Notes: generated by a model from the sequence alone, not told the origin. DNA of 24,962 nucleotides from Deltaproteobacteria bacterium (GCA_026129065.1 JAHCIV010000002.1:64001-88962), one strand, 5' to 3'; shown: positions 967 through 24,226, counted from the stretch's first letter. Program-made: numbers and translations.

Positions 967-2102
<1,136 letters not shown>

Positions 2103-2106
<4 letters not shown>

Positions 2107-4013
2107 GCCCCGATCTCCAGCGGGGCACCGACGTGCTCGACGAGGTGCGGCTTCGCCTCGAGCGCGGCCGATCGCGGTGCGGTGCCCGCGTACTCGGGAA
2201 CGAGGGTGCGGAGGGACGCGCGGATCGCGTCGGGTGCGCCCTCGCAGTGCGCGAGGAGGTCCTCGATCCCTCGGGAGATCTCGGACCAGGTTCCGCGCGC
2301 GATGCGACCGATGAAGATCTTGGGGTGCTTGGTCTTGTCGGCGTGCTCGGCGCTCGTCGAGAGCTCCTCGAACAGCTTCTCGCCGGGCCGCACGCCGCTG
2401 AACTCGATCTCGATGTCCTCGTCGGGACGGAGCCCCGAGAGCCGGATCAGGTCGCGCGCGAGCTCGACGATCCGCACCGGTGCACCCATGTCGAGGATGA
2501 AGATCTCGCCGCCGTTCCCCATCGCGCCGGCCTGGAGCACCAGCTGGCTCGCCTCGGGGATCGTCATGAAGTAGCGCTGCATCTCGGGGTGCGTCACGGT
2601 GACCGGACCACCGCGGGCGATCTGCTCCTTGAAGATCGGGATGACCGAGCCGTTCGACCCGAGGACGTTTCCAAAGCGAACGGTGACCATGCGCGTGCGG
2701 CTGCGCTCGCCGAGCGCCTGCACGTACGTCTCGGCGACCCGCTTGGTGGCGCCCATGACCGACGTCGGGTTGACCGCCTTGTCGGTCGAGATCAACACGA
2801 ACCGCGAGACGCCGAAGCGGTCGGCGAGGTCGGCGAGCAGGCGGGTCCCGCCGATGTTGTTCTTCACCGCCTCGCCCGGGTTCGCCTCCATCATCGGCAC
2901 GTGCTTGTGCGCGGCCGCGTGCAGCACGATCGACGGCCGGTGGCGCGCGAACAGCGGCTCCATCCGTCTAGGATCCGTGACGTCCGCGATGCACGGCGTG
3001 ATCTCGAGCGCCGGGTAGTCCTTCGTCAGCTCGCGATCGATCTCGAACAGCGCGTTCTCGAACCGCTCGACCAGCACGAGCTGGCGCGGTCCGAACCGGC
3101 ACGCCTGCCGGCACAGCTCGCTGCCGATGCTGCCGCCGGCGCCCGTCACCATGACGACCTCGCCGCGGATCGAATCGTTGATGGTCTCCTCGTCGAGCCG
3201 CACCGGCTCGCGCCCGAGCAGGTCCTCGATCGCGACCTCGCGGATCCGCGACAGGTTCACGTGATCCCCGACGATCTCGTAGATTCCGGGGATGATCTTC
3301 GTGTCGAGCTGAGCCAGCTGACACGCGATGGTGATCCGCCGGATCTCGGCGCCCGGGGCGTTCGCGATCGTGATCAGCACCCGCGCGACGCGCTTGCGGT
3401 GCGCGACCTCCTGGAGCTGCGCGGTCGTCCCCAGCACGGGCGTACCCGCGACGAGAGTGCCGACCTTGTGGGGATCGTCATCGAGGAAGCCGACGACGTG
3501 GAGCCCGAGGTCCGGCCGGCGCGTGATCTCGCGTGCCACGAGCACACCCGCCTGCCCGGCGCCGATCAGCAGCACCCGCTTGCGGGAACGCTCCGCACCA
3601 CGCCGGTTGCGCTCGCGCACGTCGACGTACATCCGGCGCGAGGCGCGGACCGTGATCAGCCCGGCGGCGGCGAGCACGAAGTTGGAGCACACCACCCCGA
3701 GCGGCAGGAACGCGAAGTCGAGCACCTCGACGAACCTCGACACCAGGAGGACTGTGCTCGTGATCGTGATCGAGATCACGATCTGGAGCGCCTCGCGAAG
3801 GGAGACGAACCGCCACGAGTGCTTGGGGATCCCGAGGAGCGCGAGGGTGACGTACTCGAGGACGAGGACCGTGGGCCACGCGATCACGCACGCCCGCAGC
3901 CAGAAGGCTGGGATCGCGAACTCGAATCGGATCAAGAACGCGAGCCAGAGGGCGGCAGACAGCACCGCCAGGTCGACGACGACCTGGAGTGCTCGCGTGA
4001 TGTGCCGGGACAT
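2103..4013 (-). CDS. Membrane-anchored polysaccharide biosynthesis protein CapD/PglF/WbpM family (UDP-N-acetylglucosamine 4,6-dehydratase)
   Basis: The 636-aa ORF has N-terminal TM helices, then a Rossmann motif VMVTGAGGSIGSELCRQ and the SDR-type YxxxK region ...STDKAVNPTSVMGATKRVAE. The length and architecture match PglF/WbpM. Confidence 0.85.
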
Positions 4014-4117: not shown

Positions 4118-4135
4118 TCAGCCTCGTTCGTGTGC

Positions 4136-5629
4136 TCATCGCAAAGGCAGCGGCGCCACGGTGCGCTCGCGCACCTGGACGTCGCGACACGCGACCTTGC
4201 GGACGCCGTGCTGGTCGCCCGTGATCTGCTCGAACGCCACGGCGCGACCCGAGCACCGGATGCTCACGGGAACGAGGGGCGCGGTGTTGCCACGCACGTC
4301 GACGCGCTTGATCGCGTGATCGCGGTTACCGATGACCAGGATCGCGCTCGCCTCGCCGGCGATCTCGTTCTCGGCGACGGACACACCGGCGACGTCGCCG
4401 AGAACGGCGCTCACGTTGATGAGCGGCATCGCAGCATCGCCGCCGCGGTAGGCGAGGCGGTTCCGGCGGACCTCGACCGCGCTCGCCGAGGTGAGACGCA
4501 CGACCGCGGACGGCGTCGCCTGCTCGATCGTGTTGTCCACGATCGCGAGCTCGCGGGTCGTGCGACCGGCCAGGTGAGTCGCCGCGATCACCGGGCCGGG
4601 CGGAGCGGTGGCGGGGCGGTGAAGCGTGTTGCCCGCGATCCGGACCCCGGTCGTGCCGCGCATCAGCGAGATCGTCGGCGCGCGCGATCCGCGCGGGCCG
4701 TCGACGCGGTTGCGCAGCAGGTGGACGTCCGCCACGTCGAGCAGGCGGATCGAGCCGCCCGTGATCTTCGAGTCGGCGAGCACGACGCGGCGGGTGGTGA
4801 ACTTGCCGTTGCCGCCGATCGCGATCGCGTCGGGACCCTGCGCCTCCGGGTGGTGCTCGATGACGAGGCCGATCATGATGACGTCCTCGATCGAGCCCGA
4901 GCCCGTCGGCTCGAAGTCGATCGACTGGTCGCCGGTGCCGGTGATCACGTCGTGCGTGATCACGATGCGGCGCAGCCCGCGCTGGAGCGCGATCCCGGAC
5001 CGATCGCACGCGGTGAGCGTGGAGTTCGCGATCGTGACGTCGCTGACCTCCGCGCCGAGCCGGCCGAGCAGGCGGATGCAGTCGCCGCCGATCCCGGCTC
5101 CGACCTGCTGCTCGGGGCGGCGCATCGGCCCGAGCGTCATCCGGTTGATCGTGACGTCCGAGCTGCCGTGCACGACCTCGATCAGGTGGGTCTGCTCCTC
5201 GGTGTCGAACGCGCCGAGCCCGTCGATCGTGAAGTCGTGGAGGTACACGCCGCGCGCGCCGGTGATCTGGATCGCGCGCCAGTCCTCGCGTCGTCCCGAG
5301 CCGCTCATCCGGATCACGGTGCCGGGTCCGGCGCCCGCGATCTCGATGGGACCCGACCGGATCATCAGCGAGCCCCACTCCTGCCCTCGGCGCGGCGGCC
5401 GCTCGACCAGGAAGACGCCGCGACCGAGGCACACGCGCTTGTGCTCGGCGGTCGCGATGTCGATCGCGCGCTGGATCGCCGCGGTGTCCGGCTTGTCGTC
5501 GTCGGGGACCGCGCCGAGGTCCGCGGGATCGACGCAGGCCACCACGGGAGGGTCCGGCTTGTCGTCGTCGGTCACCACACCTCGCCTCGCGCAGGCGGCG
5601 ACGGCGACGAGCAGTGCGAGCCTCAGCAT
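4136..5629 (-). CDS. Secreted right-handed parallel beta-helix repeat lipoprotein (pectin-lyase fold; possible glycan hydrolase/lyase/epimerase)
   Basis: The 497-aa ORF has a signal peptide with lipobox MLRLALLVAVAAC. It contains repeated ~22-residue beta-helix coil signatures such as ...VTIANSTLTACDRSGIAL..., ...IVITHDVITGTGDQSIDF..., ...VHLLRNRVDG... and ...VRIAGNTL... The function was not resolved. Confidence 0.6.
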   Translation of the reverse strand: MLRLALLVAVAACARRGVVTDDDKPDPPVVACVDPADLGAVPDDDKPDTAAIQRAIDIATAEHKRVCLGRGVFLVERPPRRGQEWGSLMIRSGPIEIAGAGPGTVIRMSGSGRREDWRAIQITGARGVYLHDFTIDGLGAFDTEEQTHLIEVVHGSSDVTINRMTLGPMRRPEQQVGAGIGGDCIRLLGRLGAEVSDVTIANSTLTACDRSGIALQRGLRRIVITHDVITGTGDQSIDFEPTGSGSIEDVIMIGLVIEHHPEAQGPDAIAIGGNGKFTTRRVVLADSKITGGSIRLLDVADVHLLRNRVDGPRGSRAPTISLMRGTTGVRIAGNTLHRPATAPPGPVIAATHLAGRTTRELAIVDNTIEQATPSAVVRLTSASAVEVRRNRLAYRGGDAAMPLINVSAVLGDVAGVSVAENEIAGEASAILVIGNRDHAIKRVDVRGNTAPLVPVSIRCSGRAVAFEQITGDQHGVRKVACRDVQVRERTVAPLPLR

Positions 5630-5712: not shown

Positions 5713-6315
5713 TCACCGCGACCTGGCCGGCACGCCGACGACGGTGGCGCCGTCGTCGACGTCGCGCACCACCACGGCGCCGGCGCCGACGCGCGTCCAC
5801 GCCCCGATCCTCCGCCCGGGAACGACGACCGCGCCGATGCCCAGGAACGCGCCGGCGCCCACGGTCACGGTGCCGGCGAGGTGGCTGCCGGGGGCGAGGT
5901 GCGCGGCGTCGCCGATCACGCAGTCGTGATCGATCGAGCACGACGTGTTGACGATGACGCCCGCGCCGAGCCGCGCGTCGGGCTGGATCACAGCGCCGGC
6001 GAAGACGACGGTCCCCGGGCCGAGCGTCGCCGACGCGTCGACGCATGCGCGGGCGTGGACCAGCGTCGCCAGCTCGCACCGGGCGCGGCTCATCAGGCGA
6101 TGCCTCGTCGCGTTGTCGCCCACCGCGATCACGGCGAGCTCGTCCGCGCGGTCGAGGACCTCGTCGACGGCTCCGACGATCGGTGCGCCGCACAGCACCT
6201 CGCCTCGACGGGCCGGATCGTCGTCGTACACCGAGATCTGCGCGTAGCCGATCGAGCGCGCCGTGGCGATCACGACCTTCGCGTGGCCGCCGCCGCCCAG
6301 CACGCACAGCTTCAC
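5713..6315 (-). CDS. NeuD/PglD-family sugar N-/O-acetyltransferase (left-handed beta-helix, hexapeptide repeats)
   Basis: The 200-aa ORF has the N-terminal motif LCVLGGGGHAKVVIATAR typical of NeuD/PglB/PglD (TIGR03570-like). Its C-terminal half has hexapeptide repeats (...GAGVIVNTSCSIDHDCVIGDAAHLAPGSHLAGTVTVGAGAFLGIGAVVVPGRRIG...). Confidence 0.75.
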   Translation of the reverse strand: MKLCVLGGGGHAKVVIATARSIGYAQISVYDDDPARRGEVLCGAPIVGAVDEVLDRADELAVIAVGDNATRHRLMSRARCELATLVHARACVDASATLGPGTVVFAGAVIQPDARLGAGVIVNTSCSIDHDCVIGDAAHLAPGSHLAGTVTVGAGAFLGIGAVVVPGRRIGAWTRVGAGAVVVRDVDDGATVVGVPARSR

Positions 6316-6324
6316 GCGCGCACG

Positions 6325-8111: not shown

Positions 8112-8193
8112 GAAACTCGCGTGAGCCGAACCGCACCGCCGACAGACCCCGGCGCGGCCAATCGGCACCCTAACGCCCGGAACACCCTCGCGG

Positions 8194-8661: not shown

Positions 8662-8729
8662 GCCCGTTCGATACCACGACTTTTCCGGGCAACCCCGCAC
8701 GCTTGCTGGTGGTCTGATCGACCGCTAGG

Positions 8730-9224: not shown

Positions 9225-9264
9225 GCGCGCTCGTAACGTCGTAGCGACGGGGTAGGCTGCCCGC

Positions 9265-11042: not shown

Positions 11043-11046
11043 ACCG

Positions 11047-11361
11047 ATGCCCCTGCGCGTGCGCGTGTGCACCATCGCCGACGTCGCCGCCGGCGAGCTG
11101 CGCGCGTTCCCGGTGCACGGCGTGACGTGGCCGGTGATCGTGACGATCGTCGACGGCGCGTTCGTCGCCGTCCCCGGCGTGTGCCCGCACGAGGACGTCG
11201 CCCTGTGGGAGGGCGACCTCGACGGGGGCGAGATCGTGTGCCCCGGCCACGGCTGGGGCTTCGACGTCCGCACCGGGCGCTGCAAGAGCGCACCCGGCCT
11301 CGAGCTGCGCCGCTACGCGATCACGCTCGTCGGCGACGAGATCTGGGTCGATCTCCTCTGA
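11047..11361 (+). CDS. Small Rieske [2Fe-2S] ferredoxin-like protein
   Basis: The 104-aa ORF has the two Rieske boxes CPHED (CxH) and CPGHGW (CxxH) about 19 residues apart. It starts 5 nt after the DppC stop and is probably co-transcribed. Confidence 0.7.
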   Translation: MPLRVRVCTIADVAAGELRAFPVHGVTWPVIVTIVDGAFVAVPGVCPHEDVALWEGDLDGGEIVCPGHGWGFDVRTGRCKSAPGLELRRYAITLVGDEIWVDLL

Positions 11362-11380
11362 GATCGCTTCCGACGTCGCG

Positions 11381-14134
11381 TTACTTGTACTCGGGCTCGA
11401 CGATCTTGACGTCCTTGATGCCGGCGTCGGCGAACGTCTTGTCGAGGTGCGCCTTGTCGCCGAGGACGACGATGACCTCGTTGTTCGGGTTGAGCTCCGT
11501 CGCGATCATCGCCCGCAGCTGCGCCGGCGACACGGCCGCGACCTGCTGGAGCAGCGTGTTGAAGTAGTTCGGCGGGAGGTTGTACGTCGAGATGAAGCCG
11601 AGGCGCTGCGCGAGCTCCGCGGTCACCGTCGACTCGCCGAGCAGCGTCGACAGGATCTTGCGGCGCGCGCGCACGAAGTCCTTCTCGAAGGTGTCGCCCT
11701 TGCGCAGCATCTCCACGCCCTCGCGGATCGCCTTCAGCGACTCGCCGCCGCGCTCGGCGTCGACGGTGCCGCCGATCGCGTAGGCCGCGGGGCCCTTGCG
11801 CGCGCGGCGACCGGCGTACACGCCGTACGTCGAGCCGAGCTTGAAGCGGACGTCGCCGACGCGGATGTTCATCATCTCCGCGAGCACCTGGCGCGCGCCC
11901 TCCTGGCCGTCGACGCCGGCGGGCGCGGGGTAGGCGATCCGGATCTCGAGCTGCGGCTCCTCCTTGCCGACGACGCCGACGAACGACGGCCCGGAGCGCT
12001 TGGGCGCGGTCGGATCGACGGGGCTCGCGACGGAGCCCTTGCCCCAGTCGCGGAACGTCGACTTCACGAGCTTCTCGGCGTACTTCGTGTCGAAGTCACC
12101 GGTGATGATCAGCGTCGCGTTCCCCGCCGTGTAGTGCGACTTGCGGAACGCGTCGAGCGTGTCCTTGTCGACCTTGTTGACCGCGTCGGCGGTGAGGACG
12201 CCGCTCTTCGTGTAGGGGTGATCGGGGCCGTACAGCGTCAGCAGGATCTGGCGCTCGAACTCGACCTGCTGTTGCGACTGCTTCGTCGCGAGCCGCCCCT
12301 TCACGATCTTCTGCCAGGACTCGATGCCGTCCTGGTTGTAGGTGCCCGCGTGGACCAGGCGCTCGAGCCCCTTCACCATGACCTCGAGGTAGATGTTGAT
12401 CCCGCTCGACTCGCACACGGTCGCGTCGCCGGCCGCCTCGCAATCGACGCTGATCCCCGTCTTGTCGAACGCGTCGGCGAACGGCATCTGGAGGAAGCGC
12501 GCCGCGGCGTCGGGCACCGCGCGGCTCGACGGGTAGCTCGCCGTGCCCGCGTTGTCGAACACGAGGCGCGTCGCGACGAGCGGCATCGACTTGAACGGCA
12601 AGAGGACGACCTTCATCCCGTTACCGAGCTCGAACCTCGACGCGCCGGACAGGCCCTTCAGCTCGGCGGCGAGCTTGATCGGCCGGCGCGCCTCCTCGGG
12701 GTTGATGTCCTCGACCTGCTTCTCCTCGTGCGACTTCGCGTCGAACTTGACGCGCGTGTTGCGCGTGTCGCCCTTCACGCCCTCCTTGTTCGGCTTGATG
12801 ACGATGATCCGCGCCTTGTCATAGTCGAGGTACTTCTTCACGACCGCGCCGACCTTCGCCGCGTCGAACTTGCCGATCTTGTCGAGCTCGTGGAACAGGT
12901 ACAGGTCCTGCGAGTCGAAGTTGAAGTCCTTCGAGAACTGCACGCGGTCCGCCACCTCGATCGTGCGCGCCGCGAGCTGCTCCATGCTCTGGATGAACGA
13001 GGCCTTGCGCTGGTTCCTCCACAGCTCCATGATCTCTTCGTTCGCCTCGTCGAACCCGCGGTACGCCTGCTTGATGGCCTTCTGCGTGAACTCGAGCGCG
13101 TCGTCGAGCTTGCCCATCCCCTTCAGCTCGATCGAGATCGCCGCGACCGGCGCGAGCTCGCCGCCGAGGATCGTGGGCGACACCGAGTACGCGAAGCCGT
13201 ACTCCTGACCCTTGCGCGCGATCTGCGAGAACATCCGGCCGAGGCCGAACCGGACCAGCTCGCCGTCGGGCGTGTTGTTCGGGGGGAGCGCGAACGCGAC
13301 GTGGACGCTCGCGCGCTCGACGTCGAGCTCGAACTGCTGCTTGCCCCGCGCGACGGCGAGCTGCTGCACGGGGACGCGCGGCGCGCCGGGGGCCTTCTTG
13401 AGCTTGCCGAACCACTTCTTGATCGCGTCCAGCGTCTTGTCGACGTCGATGCCGCCGGCGATGACGACGGTGGCGCGCTCGGGGACGTAGTAGTCCTTCA
13501 TGAACTTGCAGGCGTCCTCGAGCGTGATGCTCGTCAGCTGCTTGTCGTCGCCGCCGATCATGCGCTCGTAGGCGTGGCCGTGCGGGTAGATCGACGACAG
13601 GATCAGCTGCGGGATCTGGCCCTCGGCGGTGCCCGTGCGCTGGCGGATCTCGTTGCGGACGACCTCGCGCTCCCGGAGGAACTCCTCGTTGGAGATCGTC
13701 TGGCAGCCGTAGAACATCCGCATCGTCTCGATCTTGAGCATCGCGTCGAGGTTCTCGGCGCGCGCGGTGTTCATGTAGTGGGTCGTGTCCCAGTTCGTGT
13801 ACGCGTTGAAGAACGTCGTGAGCTCGTTGATGCTCTGCATGAGCGGCGCGGACTGCGCGCCGTCGGGCCGGAGCTGGAACATCAGGTGCTCGACGACGTG
13901 GGCCAGGCCCGCCTTGCCCGGCGGGTCCTCGCGCGACCCGACGTCGTAGCGGATGTCGACCTCGACGAGCTGCGTGCTCGAGTCCGGCATGAGCACGAAC
14001 TTGAGGCCGTTGGACTCGAGCTTGCCGCGGCGCTCGGCGTGGGTGAACGCGAACTTCGGCGCCTTCGGTTCGCAGGCGGGTAGCGCGCCGGCGGCGAGGG
14101 ACGCGGCGACCAGGAGGCCCCAGGGCTTGGACAT
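11381..14134 (-). CDS. Secreted tandem-unit M16 (pitrilysin/insulinase) family zinc peptidase
   Basis: The inverted zinc motif HVVEHLMF (HxxEH) lies near the N-terminus, and the ~900-aa length fits two M16 units. The probable start is the internal Met at 14134, giving MSKPWGLLVAASLAAGALPAC as a signal peptide. The track start at 14185 is the alternative. Confidence 0.8.
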   Translation of the reverse strand: MSKPWGLLVAASLAAGALPACEPKAPKFAFTHAERRGKLESNGLKFVLMPDSSTQLVEVDIRYDVGSREDPPGKAGLAHVVEHLMFQLRPDGAQSAPLMQSINELTTFFNAYTNWDTTHYMNTARAENLDAMLKIETMRMFYGCQTISNEEFLREREVVRNEIRQRTGTAEGQIPQLILSSIYPHGHAYERMIGGDDKQLTSITLEDACKFMKDYYVPERATVVIAGGIDVDKTLDAIKKWFGKLKKAPGAPRVPVQQLAVARGKQQFELDVERASVHVAFALPPNNTPDGELVRFGLGRMFSQIARKGQEYGFAYSVSPTILGGELAPVAAISIELKGMGKLDDALEFTQKAIKQAYRGFDEANEEIMELWRNQRKASFIQSMEQLAARTIEVADRVQFSKDFNFDSQDLYLFHELDKIGKFDAAKVGAVVKKYLDYDKARIIVIKPNKEGVKGDTRNTRVKFDAKSHEEKQVEDINPEEARRPIKLAAELKGLSGASRFELGNGMKVVLLPFKSMPLVATRLVFDNAGTASYPSSRAVPDAAARFLQMPFADAFDKTGISVDCEAAGDATVCESSGINIYLEVMVKGLERLVHAGTYNQDGIESWQKIVKGRLATKQSQQQVEFERQILLTLYGPDHPYTKSGVLTADAVNKVDKDTLDAFRKSHYTAGNATLIITGDFDTKYAEKLVKSTFRDWGKGSVASPVDPTAPKRSGPSFVGVVGKEEPQLEIRIAYPAPAGVDGQEGARQVLAEMMNIRVGDVRFKLGSTYGVYAGRRARKGPAAYAIGGTVDAERGGESLKAIREGVEMLRKGDTFEKDFVRARRKILSTLLGESTVTAELAQRLGFISTYNLPPNYFNTLLQQVAAVSPAQLRAMIATELNPNNEVIVVLGDKAHLDKTFADAGIKDVKIVEPEYK

Positions 14135-14138
14135 GGAG

Positions 14139-14158
14139 CGGGATCTTTTCCAATCCCG
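14139..14158. promoter_or_regulatory. Hairpin cgggat-cttttcca-atcccg immediately 5' of the proposed M16 peptidase start codon (14134)
   Basis: Read directly: 6-bp perfect inverted repeat with an 8-nt loop, inside the divergent M16/POT intergenic region. It would overlap the ribosome-binding region of the 14134 start. Confidence 0.3.
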
Positions 14159-14268
14159 TCCCGTTTGCAAGCCACTCCTACTCACCTTCCCGAGGCGCCG
14201 CGTGGGGGGCTGCGACCGCGGGCGCGTCGCACCCCTAAACGGTTTTCACCTCGAGAGTCTTCGCGCTA

Positions 14269-15888
14269 GTGTCCGCGGCGATGACAAGCGACCCCGACCG
14301 CGCCTTCTTCGGACATCCGAAGGGGCTCGCCACCCTCTTCTTCACGGAGATGTGGGAGCGCTTCTCCTACTACGGGATGCGCGCGTTCCTGATCTTCTAC
14401 CTCGCCGCCCCGGAAGACCTCGGCGGCAAGGGCATGTTCGTCCTCAACAAGGCGGGCGAGCAGGAGCCGTCGGGTGCGGCCGGCGCGATCGTCGGCGTGT
14501 TCGGCGCCTCCGTCTACCTGCTGTCGCTGCCGGGTGGCTGGATCGCCGACCGCTTCATCGGCCAGCGCAAGGGCGTCATGATCGGCGGCTTCGGCATCGC
14601 GGCCGGCAACGCGCTCCTCGCGATCCCCGGCACCGGCGATCTGTTCTACGTGGGCCTCGTGTTGATCGCGCTCGGCACCGGGTTCCTGAAGCCGAACGTG
14701 TCGACGATCGTCGGCCAGCTCTACCGCCCCGACGACCTGCGCCGGGACGCCGGTTACACGATCTACTACATGGGCATCAACATCGGCGCGACGGCCGCGC
14801 CGATCGCGTGCGGCATCCTCGCCCAGGACCCTCAGTTCCGGGCGTTCCTCGCCGACTCGGGCATCAACCCGAACTACTGCTGGAACTTCGCGTTCGGCGC
14901 GGCGGCGGTCGGCATGGTCGGCGGCCTCATCTCGTACTCGGCCGGCCAGCGCGCGCTCGGCGACGCGGGACTGCACCCGACGATCCCCGACGATCCGGTC
15001 CGCGCCGAGCGCGACCGCAACATCCTCAAGGTCATCATCGGCGCGCTCGTCGCGCTCGCGGTGATCGTCGCCGCGACGGCGCCGTCGAAGAAGACCATCA
15101 CCGACGCGATGGGCGTCGGCCTCGGCCTCGGCTCGATCGCGCTGTTCTACGGCCTCTACCGGTCGGCGCGGGATGCGAGCGAGCGCCGGCGCATCATCGC
15201 GATGGTGCCGCTGTTCGTCGGCGCGATCGGCTTCTTCGGCATCTTCGAGCAGTCGCCGACGACGCTCAACATCTACGCGGAGAGCCACACCGAGCGCGAG
15301 TTCCTCGGGCTCAACATCCCGGCGAGCTTCTACCAGAGCGTCAACGGCTTCTTCATCGTCGCGCTCGCGCCGCTGTTCGCGTGGATCTGGGTCAAGCTCG
15401 CGCGCGCGAGGAAGGAGCCGACGAGCGTCAACAAGTTCGCGATCGGCATGGCGATCCTCGCGCTGTCGTTCGTGGTGATGCTGCCGTCGCTGGCGTCGAT
15501 CGACGCCGGCCAGCGCGTCTCGCCGATGTACCTGATCATGCTGTACTTGCTCTACACCTGCGCCGAGCTGTGCATCTCGCCGGTGGGCCTGTCGTCGATG
15601 TCCAAGCTCGCGCCGCAGCGGCTCGCCGGCATGGTGATGGGCACGTGGTTCCTGGGCACGTCGATCGGCATCTACCTGGCCGGCCGCGCGAGCGAGATCT
15701 CCGAGGTGCGCGGGTTCCGGTTCCTGTTCGTGTTCCTGATCGTGTGCTCGCTCGTGATGTCGGCCGCGCTGTTCCTGGTCGCGCCGATGATCCGCAGGAT
15801 GATGGGCAAGGAAGCGACGGCGACCTCCGAGCCGGCCGAGTTGCCGGTCGCGATCGCGAAGGAGATCCCGAAGGACAAGAAGAACTAG
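14269..15888 (+). CDS. POT/PTR2-family proton-dependent di-/tripeptide transporter (DtpT-like)
   Basis: The N-terminal motif FGHPKGLATLFFTEMWERFSYYGMRAFLIFYL is the PTR2 signature, and there are about 14 predicted TM segments. It diverges from the M16 peptidase. Confidence 0.85.
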   Translation: MSAAMTSDPDRAFFGHPKGLATLFFTEMWERFSYYGMRAFLIFYLAAPEDLGGKGMFVLNKAGEQEPSGAAGAIVGVFGASVYLLSLPGGWIADRFIGQRKGVMIGGFGIAAGNALLAIPGTGDLFYVGLVLIALGTGFLKPNVSTIVGQLYRPDDLRRDAGYTIYYMGINIGATAAPIACGILAQDPQFRAFLADSGINPNYCWNFAFGAAAVGMVGGLISYSAGQRALGDAGLHPTIPDDPVRAERDRNILKVIIGALVALAVIVAATAPSKKTITDAMGVGLGLGSIALFYGLYRSARDASERRRIIAMVPLFVGAIGFFGIFEQSPTTLNIYAESHTEREFLGLNIPASFYQSVNGFFIVALAPLFAWIWVKLARARKEPTSVNKFAIGMAILALSFVVMLPSLASIDAGQRVSPMYLIMLYLLYTCAELCISPVGLSSMSKLAPQRLAGMVMGTWFLGTSIGIYLAGRASEISEVRGFRFLFVFLIVCSLVMSAALFLVAPMIRRMMGKEATATSEPAELPVAIAKEIPKDKKN

Positions 15889-15897
15889 CTCGGCCGG

Positions 15898-17544
15898 CTA
15901 GCGCGTCGGCCACGCGCCCCAGTACGCGCGGGCCTCGGGTGGGACGCGGGCGAGGGCCCAGTCCCACACCGGCTCGGTGACGAGGACGAGGCCGTTCGGG
16001 TGGCGCGGATGGGCGCCGAGGGGCGGCGGCAGCGGCGCCGCGCGCGCGTCGAGCAGGGCCTCGTCGAGGGGCGAGCCGGCCTCGATCCACGCGAGCGGCA
16101 GGATGCGCACGCGCGACGCGGCCGGGACGTCGTCGGGGCGGATGCGGATCGGCGCGCGCGTGTACCACGCGACCATGAACGCGATGTGGCGCTCGGGGAC
16201 GATCGCCGTCGCGCCGGCCGGGATGCGCGGGCCGAGCGCGAGCACGCTCGTCACGAGCGCCGGGTGCACGACCACCTCGCCCTCGACGAGGCCCTGCTCG
16301 ACGCGGCCCTGCTCGACGCGGATCGGCCCGCCGCGGCGCGCGACGGCCTGCGTGCCGCGGTCGAGGAGGCCGAACGCGAGGAGCGCGAGCAGGAGCTCGC
16401 GGTGCGGGACGCGCGCGAGGGCGCGGCCGGCGAACATCGCCGCGCACAGCGCCATCGGGACGTACGCGGCGACGCGCAGGCGGAAGCCCAGGCCCTGCGC
16501 GTCGTCGACGGCGAGCCACGGCAGCCCGATGGCGAGCGCGAGGACGACGGCCGCCCACTCGATCGGCGCGCTCGTTTACGTTTGCTGCCCCGGCGCGGGT
16601 CGCGCGCGATCGCGAAGTCTGCGACGGCGGTGAGCGAGGGCGCGTTGCGCAAAAGGCGCCGCATGGGCGCACGAAGGTAACGGCGATCGCGAGGAGGGCG
16701 AGCACGGCGCCGATCACGCCTCGTGCCCCATCGCGAGCGTCGCGCGGTCGCTCGCGATGCCGGCGCGGTCCAGCGCGCGTCCGTGGTGAACGGCGCCGGC
16801 GACGAGGTCGACGTCGGCGGGCGATGGAAAGCGCTGTGGGAACAGCAGGCCGAGGACGAGCGCGACGGCGGCGAGCGCGGCGAGGTGGCGGCGGCGAACG
16901 CCATGCGCCGGAGTGGTCGAGGGCCCCGCGCGCGCGGGCCTCGGCGAGCGCGGCGAGCGCGGCCGCGACGACGATCGCCGCGGCCATCTTGCGAGCCCCG
17001 CCGCCAGCTTGTGGGTCGCGAGCGCGGCGGCCAGCCCGAGCGCGGCGGCGGCGACACGTCCGCGATCCGGACGCTCGAGCGCACGCAGCAGCAGCCACAC
17101 CGCGGTCAGCGCGACGGTCAGGCCGATGCTGTTCTTGACGAACTCGAGCGTCGCGTACATCGACCCGGCGCTCACCGTCGCGAGCGCGGCCGCGACCAGC
17201 CCCGCGCCGCGCCCGCCGCCGAGGCGCGCGCCGACGCCGTACGCCGGCACCGCGATCAGCGCGCCCCAGAACGCGGCGCCGAGCTTGGCGCCCACGATCG
17301 GATCCGTCGCGAGCGCGAACGGCGCCATCAGCCAGAACGCGAGCGGCGACGCCGGGTACGCGAGCGCGCCGCCGTCGAGCAGCGAGCGCAGCTGGATCGC
17401 GTAGAAGTAGCCGTCGATGCCGACGGGGTACGGCGTCGCGTCGAGCACCGCCCAGCGCTGGTGGAACGACCACCCCACGAGCAGCGCGAGCAGCGCGGCG
17501 ACGGCGGCGTGCGGGAGCTCCCGCCGGTAGGGTCCGTCGCTCAC
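15898..17544 (-). pseudogene. Probable disrupted gene for a polytopic membrane protein (GT-C/PMT-like architecture). It is split by an in-frame TGA and probable frameshift(s) into an N-terminal membrane part (16714..17544) and a C-terminal part (15898..~16560).
   Basis: ORF 16714..17544 encodes a multi-TM N-terminus (…AVLDATPYPVGIDGYFYAIQLRSLLDGG…). ORF 15898..16455 is in the same frame (coordinates congruent mod 3), and its frame is open and hydrophobic upstream to a TAA near 16563 (…APIEWAAVVLALAIGLPWLAVDDAQGLGFRLRVAAYVPMALCAAMFAG…). Between 16563 and 16716 the frame is broken by TGA at 16714-16716 and TAA, and a TM-like stretch appears in another frame. A lower-GC patch at 16560-16690 coincides with the break. 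Alternatively these are two separate genes, or sequencing errors. Confidence 0.4.
16291..16320. repeat. Perfect 2 x 15-bp tandem duplication (gccctgctcgacgcg)2, preceded by a degenerate third copy at 16279-16290
   Basis: Read directly. On the minus strand it encodes the duplicated pentapeptide RVEQG-RVEQG within the C-terminal fragment of the disrupted membrane-protein gene. Confidence 0.85.
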
Positions 17545-17568
17545 CCGCGGAACATAGACCGCGACGCG

Positions 17569-18135
17569 TCAGTCCGCGACGGCGGTGGCGCCGGCGCCGG
17601 ATCCGGACGCCGAGGCGACGCGCACCATGCACGTGCTCATCTGCTGGCCGAGGTCGGTGATCAGCTGCATCTCCTCGGCGGTCGGCTGGGGCGCCGGGTT
17701 GCGGGCTCCCTCCTTCGCCATCGCGGCCGCGTCCTTCGCGTAGGCCTCCATCACGCGCGTGGTGCAGTCCGTCGACGAGCACGCGCACAGCCTGTCGGCG
17801 GCCGCGCGCATCTTGTCGACCCAGCACGAGGTGCCGTCGCAGTCGCCGACCTCGATCTCGGGGAACAGCCGGGGCGCGCACTTCGCGGCGGCGTTCTTCG
17901 ACGTCGCCTCGTCGAGGCACTCCGCCTCGTCGAGGCCGATGCCCGCGTCCTTGCACATGGCCCGGTACTTCTCGACGGCGGGGGCGCGCGCCTCGGGCTC
18001 GGCGTAGTTGCCGAGCTCCCACGAGGTCATCTGCTCGGCGATCGGATCGCAGTCCGCCGGGATCTTGCCGACCGCGCGCGTCAACGCGTAGGCGGCGGTG
18101 ACGGCCACGAAGAACAAGAGGGCGATCTTCATCAT
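17569..18135 (-). CDS. Cys-rich secreted protein, function unknown
   Basis: The true start is the internal MMKIALLFFVAVTAAYALTRA signal peptide inside track ORF 17569..18759. The upstream part of that track ORF is antisense to queC. The ~165-aa mature protein has 11 Cys. Confidence 0.55.
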   Translation of the reverse strand: MMKIALLFFVAVTAAYALTRAVGKIPADCDPIAEQMTSWELGNYAEPEARAPAVEKYRAMCKDAGIGLDEAECLDEATSKNAAAKCAPRLFPEIEVGDCDGTSCWVDKMRAAADRLCACSSTDCTTRVMEAYAKDAAAMAKEGARNPAPQPTAEEMQLITDLGQQMSTCMVRVASASGSGAGATAVAD

Positions 18136-18195
18136 CGTCCCGGCTAGGACGCGCGAGCGGGCCGGCTTCTTGGGGCCGCGTGCTAACTTGCCGCC

Positions 18196-18870
18196 GTGCC
18201 AGGCGCCGTCGTCCTCCTCTCGGGAGGTCTCGATTCCACCACCGTCCTCGCGATCGCGCGGTCGGAGGGTTACACGTGCCACGCGCTGACCGTGCGCTAC
18301 GGGCAGCTCCACGAGGTCGAGCTCGCCGCGGCGCGGCGCGCGGCCGCCGCGCTCGGGGCCGCCGAGCACCGGGTGATCGACCTCGACCTCACGCAGCTCG
18401 CGCCGTCGGCGCTGACGGCCCGCGACATCGCCGTGCCGAAGGACCGCTCGCTCGCCGAGATCGGCGCTCCCGGCGACGTGCCGGCGACGTACGTGCCGGC
18501 GCGCAACACGGTGCTGCTCGCCCTCGCGCTCGCATGGGCCGAGTCGCTCTCGGCGCGCGACATCTTCGTCGGGGTCAACGTCCTCGACGCGAGCGGCTAT
18601 CCGGACTGCCGTCCGGAGTTCGTGCGCGCGTTCGAGGCGCTCGCGCAGGTCGCGACGCGCACCGGCGGCTTCTGCATCCACGCGCCGCTGATCGCGCTCG
18701 ACAAGGCCGGGATCATCCGGCGCGGGCTCGAGCTCGGCGTCGACTACGGCGCGACGCACTCCTGCTACGACCCCGTCGGGGACCTCGCGTGCGGCCGGTG
18801 CGACGCGTGCGCGCTGCGCCGGAAGGGGTTCGCCGAGGCGGGCGTTCCGGATCCCACGCGCTACGCCTGA
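18196..18870 (+). CDS. queC: 7-cyano-7-deazaguanine synthase
   Basis: It has the PP-loop [11 protein letters not shown] and the C-terminal zinc-binding Cys cluster [16 protein letters not shown], with QueC length (224 aa). Confidence 0.9.
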
Positions 18871-18896
18871 CCCGGGTGGTGCACTAAGCTCGCGCC

Positions 18897-20183
18897 GTGC
18901 CCGGCGACAGCCTCGACAACCTCGACGACTTCCTCGCGTTCCTGCACGCCTCGCCGACGCCGTTCCACGCGGTCGTCGAGGCGCGCCGCCGCCTCGAGGC
19001 GGCGGGCTTCCGCGCGCTCGGCGAGGCCGATGCGTGGGACGGCCTCGCGCCCGGCCGCTACCACGTCACGACGAGCGAGACGAACCTCATCGCGTTCGTC
19101 CTGCCGCCCGGCGCCGAGGGGCGCACGCGCTACCGCATCGTCGGCGCGCACACGGACAGCCCGAACCTGCGCCTGAAGCCGCATGCCGAGTACACGTCCG
19201 AGGGGTACGCGCAGCTCGGCGTCGAGGTCTACGGCGGGGCGCTGCTCAACTCGTGGCTCGACCGCGACCTCGGCATCGCCGGCCGCGTGATCGTGCGCGA
19301 GGGTGACAAGGAGGGCGAGGGCTTCGCGAGCCATCTGGTGCGCCTCGACAGGCCGCTCGTGCGCGTGCCGCAGCTCGCGATCCACCTCGACCGCGAGGTC
19401 AACGAGAAGGGGCTCGTGCTCGACCGCCAGAACCACCTCGCGCCGGTGTGGGGGCTCGCCGGCGGGCCAGCGCTGTCGCAGCTCGTCGCCGACGCGATCG
19501 GCGTCGCGCCCGACCGCATCGCGGCGAGCGACCTCATGCTCCACGACGCGGTGGCGCCGGCGATCGGCGGCGCGTCGAACGAGCTCCTGTTCTCGGCCCG
19601 CCTCGACAACCTCGCGATGTGCCACGCCTCGATCACGGCGCTCGCCGCCGCCGCGCCGGGCGCGCAGTCGATCGCCGTCGTGGCGCTGTTCGATCACGAG
19701 GAGGTCGGCAGCAACAGCGCCGCCGGCGCGGGGAGCTCGACGCTGCCGCGCATGCTCGAGCGCCTGGTGCCGTCGCGCGAGGCGTTCCACCAGGCGTGCG
19801 CGCGCTCGACCTGCGTGTCGGCGGACATGTCCCACGCCGTGCACCCGAACTATGCGAGCCGGCACGAGCCGCGGCACAAGCCCGTCCTCAACGGCGGCCC
19901 GGTGATCAAGACGAACACGCAGCAGCGCTACGCGACGAACGCGGCGACGGCGGCGATGTTCGCGCGCCTGTGCCGCGACGAGGACGTGCCGGTGCAGCAC
20001 TACGCGCACCGCACCGACCTGCCCTGCGGCAGCACGATCGGCCCGATCACGTCGACGCTCCTCGGCATCCCCACCGTCGACGTCGGCAACCCGATGCTGT
20101 CGATGCACTCGGCGCGCGAGATGGCGGGGACGCGCGACCCGGCGCTCATGAACCGCGTCCTCGCCCGCTACCTGCGCAGCTGA
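18897..20183 (+). CDS. M18-family aminopeptidase (aspartyl aminopeptidase-like)
   Basis: Signatures ...RIVGAHTDSPNLRLKP..., ...LFDHEEVGS... and ...HSAREMAG... are characteristic of M18/ApeB aminopeptidases. The ORF is 428 aa. Confidence 0.85.
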   Translation: MPGDSLDNLDDFLAFLHASPTPFHAVVEARRRLEAAGFRALGEADAWDGLAPGRYHVTTSETNLIAFVLPPGAEGRTRYRIVGAHTDSPNLRLKPHAEYTSEGYAQLGVEVYGGALLNSWLDRDLGIAGRVIVREGDKEGEGFASHLVRLDRPLVRVPQLAIHLDREVNEKGLVLDRQNHLAPVWGLAGGPALSQLVADAIGVAPDRIAASDLMLHDAVAPAIGGASNELLFSARLDNLAMCHASITALAAAAPGAQSIAVVALFDHEEVGSNSAAGAGSSTLPRMLERLVPSREAFHQACARSTCVSADMSHAVHPNYASRHEPRHKPVLNGGPVIKTNTQQRYATNAATAAMFARLCRDEDVPVQHYAHRTDLPCGSTIGPITSTLLGIPTVDVGNPMLSMHSAREMAGTRDPALMNRVLARYLRS

Positions 20184-20220
20184 TCGCGCTCGCGCCCCGC
20201 CGTAGTATGCTGCGCCCGCG

Positions 20221-21375
20221 ATGAAGCTCGGCACGCTGCTCCTGCGCAACGCGGCGATCGGGCTGTCGCAGCTCGAGAGCGCGCTGCGCAACCAGGTGCT
20301 GTACGGCGGCCGCCTCGGCACGAACCTCGTCGAGCTCGGCTTCATCGACCTCGAGCTGCTGTCGGCGTACCTCGCCGAGCTGTCGGGCTACCCGATCGCG
20401 ACGCCGACGCTGCTCGACGAGGTCGACGCGTCGCTCCTCGAGAAGCTCGGCGCCGACGACGCCCACGCGCTGCGCGCGATCCCGCTCGGCAGGCTGGCGG
20501 CCGGCGACGGCGCGCCGCCGCAGGTGGCCGTGGCGATGGTCGAGCCGACGCGCGCCGAGTCGCTCGAGATCCTGCGGGCGCGGTTCGACGCACAGGTCGT
20601 GCCGTACGTCGTCCCCGAGCTGCGCGCGCTGTACTACCTGGAGAAGCACTTCGGCCTGCCGCGCCGCGCGCGCTTCATCCGGTCGGCGCGGCCGGGCGGC
20701 GAGTGCGCGCGAGCGGCCTGCCGTCCCGGCGGTGGCGTCCGCCGGCGCGGGCGCGGCCACCCCGGCGGAGCGCGCAAGTCGCAGCCGCTGCAGGGGATGG
20801 TGATGCCGCCGGCGTTCACGCTCGAGCCGCGCCGCCGCCGCGCGTCGCAGGTGCCGGCCGTGCCGGGCGTGCCGATCACGGCGACGTACACGGCGACGTG
20901 CGACGCGATCGACACGGCGACGCACCGCGACCAGATCGGCGAGGCGCTCGTCCACTACGCGAAGGGCCGCGTCGACGCGCTCGTCCTGTTCCTCATCCGC
21001 GACGGCAACGCGCTCGGCTGGGGCGGCTACGTCGCGGGCGGCGCGCCGCGGACGCCGATCGAGGAGATCTCGCTGCCGCTCGGCGGCGCCTCGTCGCTGC
21101 AGTCGGCGCACGACGCCGGCCAGCCGTTCGTCGGCCCGCCCCCGTCGGCGGCGCGCCCCGTCGAGACGAAGCTGTGGCAGGCGCTCGGCACCACCCCCGA
21201 GCCGGGCATCGTGATCGTCGTGCCGGTCATGGTGCGCCAGCGCTCCGTCAACCTGATCTACGCGCACCCCATCCCGGGGGCGTCGCCGACGGCGCAGCTC
21301 GTCCACGAGCTCAACGACCTCGCGAACCGGGCGCAGACCGCGTACCTGCGCCTGATCCGTCAAGCGCGCGGATAA
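20221..21375 (+). CDS. Hypothetical protein with an N-terminal T2SS GspE-N-like (T2SSE_N) domain
   Basis: The N-terminal ~140 aa (MKLGTLLLRNAAIGLSQLESALRNQVLYGGRLGTNLVELGFIDLELLSAYL...) matches the GspE/PilB N-terminal domain pattern common in myxobacterial standalone proteins. This is followed by an Arg/Gly-rich linker and an unassigned C-terminal domain. Confidence 0.5.
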   Translation: MKLGTLLLRNAAIGLSQLESALRNQVLYGGRLGTNLVELGFIDLELLSAYLAELSGYPIATPTLLDEVDASLLEKLGADDAHALRAIPLGRLAAGDGAPPQVAVAMVEPTRAESLEILRARFDAQVVPYVVPELRALYYLEKHFGLPRRARFIRSARPGGECARAACRPGGGVRRRGRGHPGGARKSQPLQGMVMPPAFTLEPRRRRASQVPAVPGVPITATYTATCDAIDTATHRDQIGEALVHYAKGRVDALVLFLIRDGNALGWGGYVAGGAPRTPIEEISLPLGGASSLQSAHDAGQPFVGPPPSAARPVETKLWQALGTTPEPGIVIVVPVMVRQRSVNLIYAHPIPGASPTAQLVHELNDLANRAQTAYLRLIRQARG

Positions 21376-21495
21376 TTCGACATGCCGCCGGCGGAGTGAT
21401 CGTCCGGTCACGATGCACGCAGGGTCCACTCGATCGGTCGCGAGCGACGTCCTCGTCGATCGAGCACGAGCACGAGTACGATCTGGAGACGCGAG

Positions 21496-22335
21496 ATGCA
21501 CGAGGCCATCCACAAGTACCCGCGGACGCACCACCTCGAGGGCAGCCGGTTGCAGCCGGGCGACCACGACCTGGCGCAGGTCCCGCTCGCGTCGCTGCGC
21601 GGGCGGTACTGCGTCGTCGAGGAGAAGCTCGACGGGGCGAACGCGGGGCTATCGCTCGACGAGCGCGGCCGGCTGCGGCTGCAGAGCCGCGGGCACGTGC
21701 TGAGCGGCGGGCCGCGCGAGCGCCACTGGGACCTGTTCAAGCAGTGGGCGCGGGCCCACGAGACGGCGCTCGCGGAGCGGCTCGCGGCCCACCCGGGAGG
21801 CCTCACGATCTACGGCGAGTGGCTCTACGCGAAGCACACGGTGTTCTACGACCAGCTGCCGCACTACTTCATGGAGTTCGACATCCGCGACGCGGCCGGC
21901 GCGTTCTGGTCGACGGCGCGGCGCGCGGAGCACCTGGCGGCGGCGCCGATCGTGGCGGTCCCGGTCGTGTGGGAGGGCGTCGTCGAGGACCCGCGCGACC
22001 TGCCGGAGCTGGTCGCGCCGTCGCTGTACAAGTCGGCGCGCTGGCGCGAGGCGCTGCGCGACGCGGCGGTCGAGGGCGGCGTCGAGCCGGAGCGCTGCGC
22101 GCGCGAGACCGATGCGTCGGATCACGCCGAGGGGCTGTACGTGAAGGTCGAGGACCGCGCGACCGGGACGGTCGTCGGGCGCTACAAGTGGATCCGGCCG
22201 TCGTTCCACCAGGCGATCCAGGAGGCCGGCGACCACTGGCTGCAGCGGCCGATCGTCGCGAACCGGCTGGCCGAGGGCGTCGACCTGTTCGCGTCGCCCG
22301 GATCGGAAGGATCGGAAGGATCGGAAGCGCCGTGA
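21496..22335 (+). CDS. ATP-dependent RNA/polynucleotide ligase, minimal nucleotidyltransferase-domain type (Rnl-family)
   Basis: The N-terminal KYPRTHHL box is typical of the RNA_ligase family. Motif I is VVEEKLDGAN, with the predicted adenylylated Lys at nt 21625-21627. Motif IV is EGLYVKVED and motif V-like is GRYKWIRPSF. The C-terminus is a (GSE)3 repeat. Confidence 0.75.
   Translation: MHEAIHKYPRTHHLEGSRLQPGDHDLAQVPLASLRGRYCVVEEKLDGANAGLSLDERGRLRLQSRGHVLSGGPRERHWDLFKQWARAHETALAERLAAHPGGLTIYGEWLYAKHTVFYDQLPHYFMEFDIRDAAGAFWSTARRAEHLAAAPIVAVPVVWEGVVEDPRDLPELVAPSLYKSARWREALRDAAVEGGVEPERCARETDASDHAEGLYVKVEDRATGTVVGRYKWIRPSFHQAIQEAGDHWLQRPIVANRLAEGVDLFASPGSEGSEGSEAP
22300..22326 (+). repeat. 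Perfect 3 x 9-bp tandem repeat (ggatcggaa)3 encoding (GSE)3 at the ligase C-terminus
   Basis: Read directly: ggatcggaa ggatcggaa ggatcggaa, ending 6 nt before the ligase stop / HD-Pnk start. Confidence 0.9.
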
Positions 22336-23504
22336 CGCTCCCCGACCTGGCGCCCGGCGCGGCGATCGACTGGGCGGCCGTCGAGGCGTGGCTCGCGCCG
22401 ATCGCGCCGGCGGCCGAGCTGGCGGCGACGCCGCAGGACCACGCGTTCCACGCCGAGGGCGACGTGTGGACGCACACGAGGATGGCCGTCGAGGCGCTCG
22501 TCGCGCAGCCGGCGTACGCCGCCGCGGATCCGGTCGCCCGCGGGATCCTCGCGGCGGCGGTCCTGCTCCACGACGTCGGCAAGCCGAGCACCACGCGCGT
22601 CGTCCCCCAGGAAGGCGGGGAGCGGATCACGTCGCGCGGGCACTCGGCGCGCGGCGAGGGGCTGGCGCGGGTGGCGCTGTGGCGCGCCGGCGTGCCGTTC
22701 GGGGTCCGCGAGCACGTGTGCGCGCTCGTCCGCTACCACCAGGTGCCGTTCTTCGGGATCACGCGCGAGCCGCGTGAGGCCGAGCGGCTCGCGCTCCGCC
22801 TGTCGCTGATCCTGCGCCACGACTGGCTGACCGCGGTCGCCGAGGCCGACGGGCGCGGCCGGCGCTGCGCCGACCCGGCGGACCAGGTGCGCATCGTCGA
22901 CCACTGCGGCCTGTGGGCGGAGCACTGCCGGGAGCACGGCGTCCTCGCCACGGCGCGCGCGTTCGCGACGCCCCACACGCGCCGGGTGTGGTGCGAGTCC
23001 GAGGCGCCGCGGTCGCCGGACGTGCCGGCCCACGACGACACGACCTGCGAGGTCACGCTGATGTGCGGGCTGCCGGCGGCCGGCAAGGACTCGTGGCTGC
23101 GGGCGAACGCGCCCGAGCTGCCGGTGATCTCGCTCGACGCCGTCCGCGACGAGCTCGACGTCGAGCCGGGCGACAGCCGCGGCGAGGTCATCGCGCTCGC
23201 CCGCGAGCGGGCCCGCGAGATGCTGCGCGCCGGGACGTCGTTCGCGTGGAATGCCACGAACTTGTCGCGCGACCTGCGCGCCCAGCTGCTCGGCTTCTTC
23301 CGCTCGTACCGGGCGCGCACGCGCATCGTCTACTGCGAGGCCACGGCCGCCGACCAGCACGGACGCAACCGGCAGCGCGACGCGATCGTGCCGGCGCGGG
23401 TCATCGATCGCATGCTCGAGCGCTGGACGGTCCCGGATCCGACCGAGGCCCACGCGGTCCTGTACGTCACTCCCGGCGACGCGAGCTGGCCACCTACATC
23501 GTAG
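22332..23504 (+). CDS. Bifunctional HD-domain 2',3'-phosphoesterase / P-loop 5'-OH polynucleotide kinase (HD-Pnk-like RNA end-healing enzyme)
   Basis: The GTG start overlaps the ligase stop (GTGA at 22332-22335). It is in frame with the C-terminal third of track ORF 20703..23504. The N-terminal HD domain has H...HD motifs (DHAFHAEGDVWTHT; LLHDVGKP at nt 22563). The C-terminal kinase has the P-loop VTLMCGLPAAGKDS (nt 23067) and the Pnk-type RxxxR element (FRSYRARTR). Confidence 0.75.
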   Translation: MTLPDLAPGAAIDWAAVEAWLAPIAPAAELAATPQDHAFHAEGDVWTHTRMAVEALVAQPAYAAADPVARGILAAAVLLHDVGKPSTTRVVPQEGGERITSRGHSARGEGLARVALWRAGVPFGVREHVCALVRYHQVPFFGITREPREAERLALRLSLILRHDWLTAVAEADGRGRRCADPADQVRIVDHCGLWAEHCREHGVLATARAFATPHTRRVWCESEAPRSPDVPAHDDTTCEVTLMCGLPAAGKDSWLRANAPELPVISLDAVRDELDVEPGDSRGEVIALARERAREMLRAGTSFAWNATNLSRDLRAQLLGFFRSYRARTRIVYCEATAADQHGRNRQRDAIVPARVIDRMLERWTVPDPTEAHAVLYVTPGDASWPPTS

Positions 23505-23771
23505 TTGGCGGCACGAAGCAGGTCGGTGGTCAAGTTGTTTCGACCGGCAAAAGCGCAGTTAGATCGATGAAATCACAGCAGAACTTGGGCACCATCGACA
23601 GGCGGGACGGTAACTTGACTGGCGCCGCCAAAGAGGGATGCTGCCCTCGTGCCCGAACGAATCAGCCTTCCGAATCAGACCTGCGCCAAGGTCGGTTTCG
23701 GAACCATCGCCGCCGCGCTCGCTGCTCTCTCCATGGCCATCCTCGGCCATTTCTTCATCTAGGCCTTCTGA

Positions 23772-24218: not shown

Positions 24219-24226
24219 ATCCCTTT

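Follow-up and report, generated by a model that had tools for sequence, protein, structure and literature searches.

A conserved, putative GT-C glycosyltransferase gene whose frame disruptions are confined to a GC-rich central tract

Glycosyltransferases of the GT-C fold include ArnT (CAZy GT83; PDB 5EZM/5F15), STT3/PglB (GT66) and the protein O-mannosyltransferases (GT39). The family considered here resembles ArnT in a borderline match to its Pfam family (PF13231, PMT_2), in size (~540 amino acids, aa), in the GT-C fold and in an acidic residue within the first outward-facing loop that follows the first transmembrane helix (TM1), which in this family is the invariant D45; with STT3/PglB it shares a membrane module followed by a C-terminal extracytoplasmic domain. 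We analysed one gene of the family at positions 15898..17544, minus strand, of a 24,962-nucleotide (nt) stretch of DNA from a Deltaproteobacteria bacterium (GCA_026129065.1, JAHCIV010000002.1:64001-88962), the whole of which we call the window. The initial annotation had described this gene as interrupted by stops and likely frameshifts and had offered three explanations, a genuine decaying pseudogene, local assembly or sequencing errors, or two genes. We are close to certain that it is a conserved single GT-C gene which, as written, is not translatable into a full protein, and a technical fault within a central tract is the leading candidate for the cause.

Reading frames, homologues and the intact orthologue

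The window has a GC content of 71.4%, and its three minus-strand frames are denoted A, B and C, with A counted from the GTG at 17544. From this start codon, frame A runs for 276 codons to a TGA at 16716-16714, exactly where it had been annotated, continues through 45 codons of sequence that is not protein-like to a TAA, and then provides 225 codons of good protein sequence up to the natural stop TAG (15900-15898). The TAA had been annotated as well, although its real position is 16578-16576, ~13 nt from the claimed ~16563. The main features are:

15898..17544, minus strand: whole disrupted gene, orthologue of the intact 542-aa GT-C (PMT_2) protein of the metagenome-assembled genome (MAG) ACE_MYX2
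16714..16716, minus strand: in-frame TGA of frame A, from a 1-nt deletion at 16717 (GAGGCGCTGATC to GAGGCG-TGATC)
16576..16578, minus strand: in-frame TAA of frame A, within the AT-ward substituted patch 2 (see below)
16649..16720, minus strand: authentic transmembrane helix VIGAVLALLAIAVTFVRP, readable only in frame B

The hydrophobic peptide GVIGAVLALLAIAVTFVRP, previously reported as a transmembrane-like stretch in another frame between the two halves, was found there and corresponds to helix LIGAVLALLAIAVTFVRP of the intact orthologue. It is displaced from frame A by the same 1-nt deletion at 16717 that gives rise to the TGA, and both internal stops result from the small indels of the central tract. 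In a frame plot of GC content at third codon positions (GC3), the pattern across the region identifies the minus strand as the coding strand; plus-strand open reading frames (ORFs) at 15977..16633, 16000..16680 and 16723..18147 were therefore rejected as antisense ORFs typical of high-GC DNA. At the 77% GC of this gene, stops alone carry little weight, and it is the homologue evidence that lifts the observation above chance.

Using the joined frame-A translation as the query, we obtained more than 470 full-length homologues of ~500-540 aa that extend over both halves. The best 120 of these, from Myxococcota, Kofleriaceae and Haliangiales metagenome bins, are single proteins of ~490-570 aa, most of them covering 95-99% of the query, and tblastn alignments of the homologues pass through both stops uninterrupted. 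The best listed match was only 53% identical, and the intact 542-aa orthologue (GCA_019637375.1, PMT_2 match) was not among the listed matches; a search of this kind can miss close relatives. The orthologue came from a genome scan, which identified a sister genome, the MAG 'Deltaproteobacteria bacterium ACE_MYX2' (contig JAHBVW010000001.1, locus L001). Window positions 6324-24962 align to this locus at 98.9% identity over 18.6 kb, the flanks being 99.5% identical, and an uninterrupted 542-aa ORF occupies the orthologous position, with a gene length of 1629 nt compared to 1647 nt in the window.

The gene lies between queC and a gene for a POT transporter, and this position is kept in ~20 related genomes, as is the wider order of MshEN-domain gene, queC, GT-C gene, POT, M16 peptidase, Rieske, oppC and oppB. 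Of 20 orthologous loci, 18 keep an open frame throughout. In two other public assemblies the orthologous gene is broken as well, at positions that differ from those in the window: locus L016 (a MAG with a 2.9-Mb contig; frame disrupted at 10849-10872, ~11420 and ~11540) and locus L025 (a 3.7-kb metagenome contig; disrupted at ~2242-2296). Exact-sequence look-ups of the N-terminal ORF, QueC, the 188-aa neighbour, the POT transporter and the lipoprotein gave no match, that of the M16 peptidase matched only the sister MAG, no second assembly of this strain emerged from these look-ups, and a metagenome scan returned only distant relatives (46-54% identical).

These alignments bear directly on the proposal of two independent genes, an N-terminal membrane protein at 16714..17544 and a C-terminal protein at 15898..16455. 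While there are two sizeable ORFs in the same frame with possible start codons, every homologue is a single protein across both parts, the orthologue is one ORF, and the missing helices are encoded between the two ORFs in other frames. The translated alignment spans both halves instead of resolving into two full-length genes, and we regard the proposal as almost certainly wrong; the two ORFs should not be annotated as separate genes. The intact ORF of the sister genome upholds the alternative description of one gene broken by stops and frameshifts.

We derived the frame path from a homologue profile on the three minus-strand frames and, separately, from the GC3 frame plot with Viterbi segmentation, and listed the lesions from a base-level alignment to the sister orthologue in gene sense. 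All of these gave one path, which confirms that frameshifts are present: A (17544 to ~17000), B, C, A (~16884), C (~16793), A (~16758), B (16717), C (~16664) and A again (from ~16563). The lesions, all on the minus strand and taken from the base-level alignment, are:

17040-16994, minus strand: net +20 nt, the first frameshift, from A to B
16956, minus strand: -3, in frame
16913-16912, minus strand: +2
16885, minus strand: -1
16793, minus strand: +1
16758, minus strand: -1
16717, minus strand: -1, creating the TGA
16664, minus strand: -1
16586, minus strand: +1
16563, minus strand: +1

The indels sum to +18 nt, nine events change the frame relative to the 542-aa orthologue, and all 11 gap events of the gene fall within 17040-16563. 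They are mostly 1 nt long and lie outside homopolymers, several of them touch a substitution, and the ratio of indels to substitutions is near 1:1 in 16855-16665.

Four segments of unequal divergence

Aligned to the sister orthologue, the gene divides into four segments (S1 to S4, in gene sense), which differ sharply in their divergence, every lesion lying in the central 0.66 kb:

17226..17544, minus strand: S1, 0/319 substitutions and no indels; codons 1-106, with the GTG start and the Asp codon D44 at 17415-17413
17014..17225, minus strand: S2, 39/212 substitutions (18%), no indels in the in-register codon alignment
17013-16560, minus strand: S3, 38/454 substitutions (~8-9% different) and all frame-changing indels
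16560..16973, minus strand: backbone of S3, orthologue-like, with eight frame-changing indels and one in-frame 3-nt deletion
15898..16559, minus strand: S4, 8/662 substitutions (1.2%), six of the eight at third codon positions, no indels; frame A
16974..17013, minus strand: 20-nt imperfect tandem repeat, copy 1 CACAAGCTGGCGGCGGGGCT at 17013-16994 and copy 2 CGCAAGATGGCCGCGGCGAT at 16993-16974
16641..16667, minus strand: patch 1, ~11/24 nt substituted plus a -1 indel, PMRRLLRNA compared to PPAPHPRDV in the orthologue
16570..16589, minus strand: patch 2, GCCGGCGCCGGC of the orthologue changed to GCAAACGTAAAC, with an adjoining +1 indel; core of the 'low-GC' stretch

The rest of the alignment (17,968 nt) shows 86 substitutions between the two genomes (0.48%), and its only indels are a cluster of three at 20703-20773 and a 9-nt repeat-copy difference at ~22319. 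S4 comprises the C-terminal third of the protein, that is, the last transmembrane helices and the soluble alpha/beta domain. S4 contains a perfect 15-nt tandem duplication at ~16289-16318 (GCCCTGCTCGACGCG twice on the plus strand), which encodes RVEQG-RVEQG in frame; it is common to the sister genome, and other family members are gapped there in tblastn alignments.

The two central segments diverge in different ways. The protein encoded by S2 is 72% identical to the orthologue and about equally distant from the sister genome and from other genera; its differences at codon positions 3, 1 and 2 number 26, 17 and 10, 16 codon changes are synonymous, and GC>AT and AT>GC counts are symmetric. S2 is thus real coding divergence, an in-frame, foreign-looking allele, and not noise. 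We sought its donor among 25 loci and 120 proteins and found none, the best candidates (~77% identical in aa, 80-83% in nt) being no closer than the sister genome. In S3, the changes are spread evenly over the codon positions (9/11/11) and are AT-biased, with 20 GC>AT compared to 4 AT>GC, while the same counts outside the gene are 28:30; these substitutions are unselected. Over runs of 60-95 nt the S3 backbone matches the sister genome exactly, and these runs are broken by single-base indels in non-repetitive contexts and by the densely substituted patches 1 and 2.

The net gain of 20 nt at the border between these two segments is best read as the 20-nt imperfect tandem repeat, out of register. 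Its second copy (16993-16974) is 19/20 identical to the sister genome and its first copy continues the upstream S2-type allele, and because of this repeat the invariant His-Lys motif is encoded twice, once as the S2 type and then as the orthologue type. An ectopic template for the substituted patches or for the repeat was not found within the window.

The region 16560-16690 had been singled out as conspicuously less GC-rich than its surroundings. Its GC content of 71% is indeed below that of the gene as a whole, but the dip is modest and close to the window average (41st percentile). The equivalent stretch of the orthologue has 83% GC, and the ~12 points by which the window falls below it are due to AT-ward changes such as that of GCCGGCGCCGGC to GCAAACGTAAAC in patch 2. 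Within the aligned 18.6 kb, GC content is highest in parts of the S2/S3 tract of the orthologue, which reaches the 99th percentile at 450 nt and has peaks of 0.89-0.92 GC at a resolution of 60-100 nt. Four of the five 60-nt peaks with GC >= 0.90 in the orthologous region carry indels in the window, and one of these four is the cluster at 20703-20773. This second cluster (20703, -1; 20718-20719, +2; 20773, -1; net 0; GC peak 0.89-0.92) lies inside the MshEN-domain gene (ORF 20221..21375, plus strand), which stays open, with 23 low-complexity linker codons in shifted frames (ECARAACRPGGGVRRRGRGHPGGA compared to EVRASGAVPAVASAGAGAATPAER in the sister locus). All ~20 other genes of the window are intact as judged by ORF, GC3 and Pfam coverage.

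Possible causes of the disruption

A local consensus or assembly artefact is the most likely cause of the disruption, a view that we hold at about an even chance, and local errors are the best fit of the three options in the initial annotation. The consensus would have weak support, or be chimeric, where the locus is richest in GC and varies between strains, for example after a gap was closed or polished on the basis of too few native reads or of reads cross-mapped from a relative. A 212-nt in-frame, foreign-looking allele would then have been joined out of register, via the 20-nt repeat, to 450 nt of sister-like sequence, and the gene would be intact in the organism. We propose that one technical cause could account for several features at once: the lesions are confined and coincide with GC maxima at two sites, the substitutions are biased towards AT and fall on codon positions without a sign of selection, the 1-nt indels lie outside homopolymers, and the junction is out of register. 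The frameshifts in L016 and L025, which place disruptions in the same gene in other public assemblies, may be counted on the same side. A genome-wide, motif-specific error, for example at methylated GCCGGC, was rejected, 65 of 72 GCCGGC sites being unchanged.

Several points weigh against an artefact. It is deduced from the assembled sequence. The selected pattern of S2 cannot be random error and calls either for alleles that truly differ or for a chimera that includes the orthologue of another organism. At ~9%, S3 differs by more than consensus errors usually produce, the indels of each of the two clusters add up to 0 mod 3 (chance 1/9), and the GC peak at 24519-24578 is equally GC-rich and clean. 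Natural mosaicism is moreover plausible here, because the polysaccharide locus left of 6324 was replaced between the strains.

These considerations give some weight to a genuine and very recent inactivation by mosaic recombination, which would make the gene a young pseudogene of this strain and which we consider possible, if less probable than an artefact. S2 would have integrated by homologous recombination on one side and illegitimate recombination on the other, leaving the 20-nt out-of-register junction, and the adjoining 450 nt would have suffered a burst of mutations, for instance through error-prone synthesis during repair or because single-stranded DNA, resected at the extremely GC-rich tract, was damaged. 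S2 bears the signature of a real functional allele, the replaced polysaccharide locus 10 kb away indicates recombination with diverged DNA, the AT-biased spectrum resembles raw mutation, and the rest of the assembly is free of stray indels, which argues for good sequence quality. On the other hand, 38 substitutions and nine indels in 454 nt next to flanks at 0-1.2% call for an ad hoc hypermutation, the indels avoid the repeats and homopolymers that are natural slippage sites, the coincidence with GC maxima at two places is more simply predicted by a coverage problem, and the gene is conserved and syntenic in ~20 related genomes. That all lesions are real and stem from a single local mutational catastrophe, in which an out-of-register diverged patch is combined with a ~450-nt kataegis-like, AT-biased tract at the GC-richest DNA and which would have inactivated an otherwise universally conserved gene in a strain whose neighbouring polysaccharide locus was exchanged too, appears improbable to us.

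An ordinary old pseudogene decaying uniformly under relaxed selection is a very unlikely explanation. Internal stops and frameshifts are present, the continuous frame of the orthologues has been lost and the S3 changes are AT-ward, but we did not find relaxed selection over the whole gene. Neutral decay at the S3 rate predicts ~22 substitutions in S1 and ~45 in S4, compared to the 0 and 8 observed; GC3 is ~1.0 in both flanks of the gene, and most S4 differences are at third codon positions. The divergence of S3 surpasses by several-fold whatever has accumulated elsewhere between the two genomes, is far beyond the 0.48% between the strains, and therefore does not represent neutral decay since their split. 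The 'genuine decaying pseudogene' is not supported in the form in which it was put forward, with S1 and S4 nearly unchanged and the substitutions of S2 and S3, together with all indels, in the centre. Finally, regulated expression by slipped-strand mispairing (phase variation), programmed frameshifting or stop read-through has next to no chance of being correct: phase variation of glycosyltransferase genes is a classic phenomenon in some bacteria and both indel clusters preserve the frame overall, but the indel sites lack homopolymers and short repeats, and at least 8 frame changes would be needed where the orthologue needs none.

For annotation, we recommend the label 'frameshifted, possibly an assembly error' for this locus, which should not count as gene loss. 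More generally, this case indicates that artefact and decay can be separated without reads if a near-identical genome is at hand, by asking whether the differences are clustered or spread, selected or unselected, and coincident with GC extremes. If the lesions were real, the strain would be without a GT-C enzyme whose gene is retained in place by ~20 related Kofleriaceae/Haliangiales genomes, and the loss could connect to its different polysaccharide locus.

Neighbouring genes, the GT-C family and related systems

Near-identity to the sister genome ends abruptly at 6324, the end of a gene for a metallo-beta-lactamase (MBL)-fold protein (window 1-6324 compared to 17811-22754 of the sister locus L026). 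To the left of this junction the window carries:

5713..6315: PglD-like gene
4136..5629: beta-helix gene
2103..4013: PglF-like gene, only 73% identical in nt to the sister genome
967..2106: DegT/PglE-like gene

The sister genome instead has genes for Wzy_C and Poly_export, a small ORF and a PglF-like gene on this side, and window 1-6324 is a strain-variable polysaccharide locus, its PglF/E/D-like genes lying 10 kb from the GT-C gene. The initial annotation had proposed that loss of a GT-C glycosyltransferase may matter for glycan-precursor genes nearby. A candidate second pseudogene with an in-frame stop at ~6316-6327 turned out to be two complete genes, for the MBL-fold protein and the PglD-like acetyltransferase, and the OppC-like ORF at 10205-11042 is intact. 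Two adjacent paralogous MBL-fold (Lactamase_B_2) genes occupy 6325-8168 (minus strand), and one MBL-fold paralogue of the sister genome has a weak precomputed match to Anti-Pycsar_Apyc1 (PF23023). At 21496-23504 (plus strand), an RNA_ligase (PF09414) gene is followed by a gene with HD and AAA_33 (kinase-like) domains; the two are also adjacent in two related loci (L010 and L011) and look like an RNA-repair pair. At the junction of the RNA-ligase gene (21496..22335) and the HD/AAA_33 gene, a 9-nt tandem repeat (GGATCGGAA, ~22300-22330) is present in three copies in the window, and the sister genome is 9 nt longer.

We assigned the GT-C gene to a family by profile searches and structure prediction. 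Against PMT_2 (gathering threshold 26.1 bits), the N-terminal ORF of the window scored 26.5 bits and the intact orthologue 37.1 bits, three other family members stayed at 22.4-23.3 bits, under the cut-off, and precomputed tables list PF13231 for only some members. The Pfam family PMT (PF02366), diagnostic here for GT39, scored 13.4 bits (cut-off 22.7) and no MIR domain match was found; for GT66, TIGR04154 (NCBIfam STT3) scored 7.9 bits (cut-off 450). Among the invariant or near-invariant columns of a 94-sequence alignment there is no WWDYG, only W440-Y441 in 'VAWYT', and neither a profile search of PDB sequences nor an NCBIfam search gave a meaningful match. The same 94 sequences were used for an AlphaFold2 model of one family member (P0001), which reached a mean predicted local distance difference test score (pLDDT) of 90.8 and a predicted template-modelling score (pTM) of 0.90 and consists of long helices up to residue ~393 followed by an alpha/beta C-terminal domain. 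Foldseek searches of the PDB with this model returned STT3/PglB as the best matches (E 4e-6 to 1e-4), ArnT at E 1.2e-4 with a template-modelling (TM) score of ~0.50 in both directions, and DPY19, AftD, ALG9, Pmt4 and EmbA/B as further matches, with a probability of 0.99-1.0 for the top 25. Just after TM1 the alignment has the invariant Asp D45 in G-x-D-G-Y-F-Y, which in the window is D44 in GIDGYFY, and H179-K180, GFRLR, PERH and W-Y are further invariant motifs.

The family thus combines a polytopic membrane module and an extracytoplasmic domain with structural similarity to known GT-C enzymes and an acidic residue in the first loop, although reading the central helices of the window copy requires changes of frame. 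The model and the motifs point to a GT-C-fold glycosyltransferase with a borderline PMT_2 match and outside GT39 and GT66, in line with the initial description of a polytopic, GT-C/PMT-like gene; judged from fold and motif, it may work like ArnT- or STT3-type transferases. As a family of ~510-540 aa with its own C-terminal domain it is uncharacterised, but public records already label it 'GT family 39'.

Compared with the described systems, the family differs from ArnT in a sequence identity of only 14-15%, with no PDB match at the sequence level, and the window copy cannot be translated as one protein; its C-terminal domain has the invariant motifs PERH, WY and H..G of its own. STT3/PglB are the best structural matches (probability 1.0, query-normalised TM score, TMq, 0.48-0.56), yet the family is ~170-200 aa shorter, is without WWDYG in its invariant columns and is not a member of GT66; the 'DGY' after TM1 presumably recalls the loop-1 motif of PglB, which we take as a lead only. 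With GT39 it has the GT-C fold in common; its match to PMT_2 is weak, and Pmt4 and Pmt1-Pmt2 are among the fold matches, but these cover only ~200-240 residues, PF02366 stays under its cut-off and MIR is absent from the matches; the GT39 name given by NCBI to several members is annotation by similarity and not tested membership. As for the disruption, the closest parallel is with frameshifted 'pseudogenes' produced by faulty local consensus or polishing at GC extremes of assemblies, which have in common with this locus clustered 1-nt indels, AT-ward miscalls at GC maxima, clean neighbour genes and an intact gene in a near-identical genome, while the coding divergence of S2 and the 20-nt junction repeat go beyond simple base-calling noise. 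Whether artefact or young pseudogene, a frameshifted gene is a known kind of thing, and the sharply bounded mosaic and noisy tract is the only unusual element of this locus.

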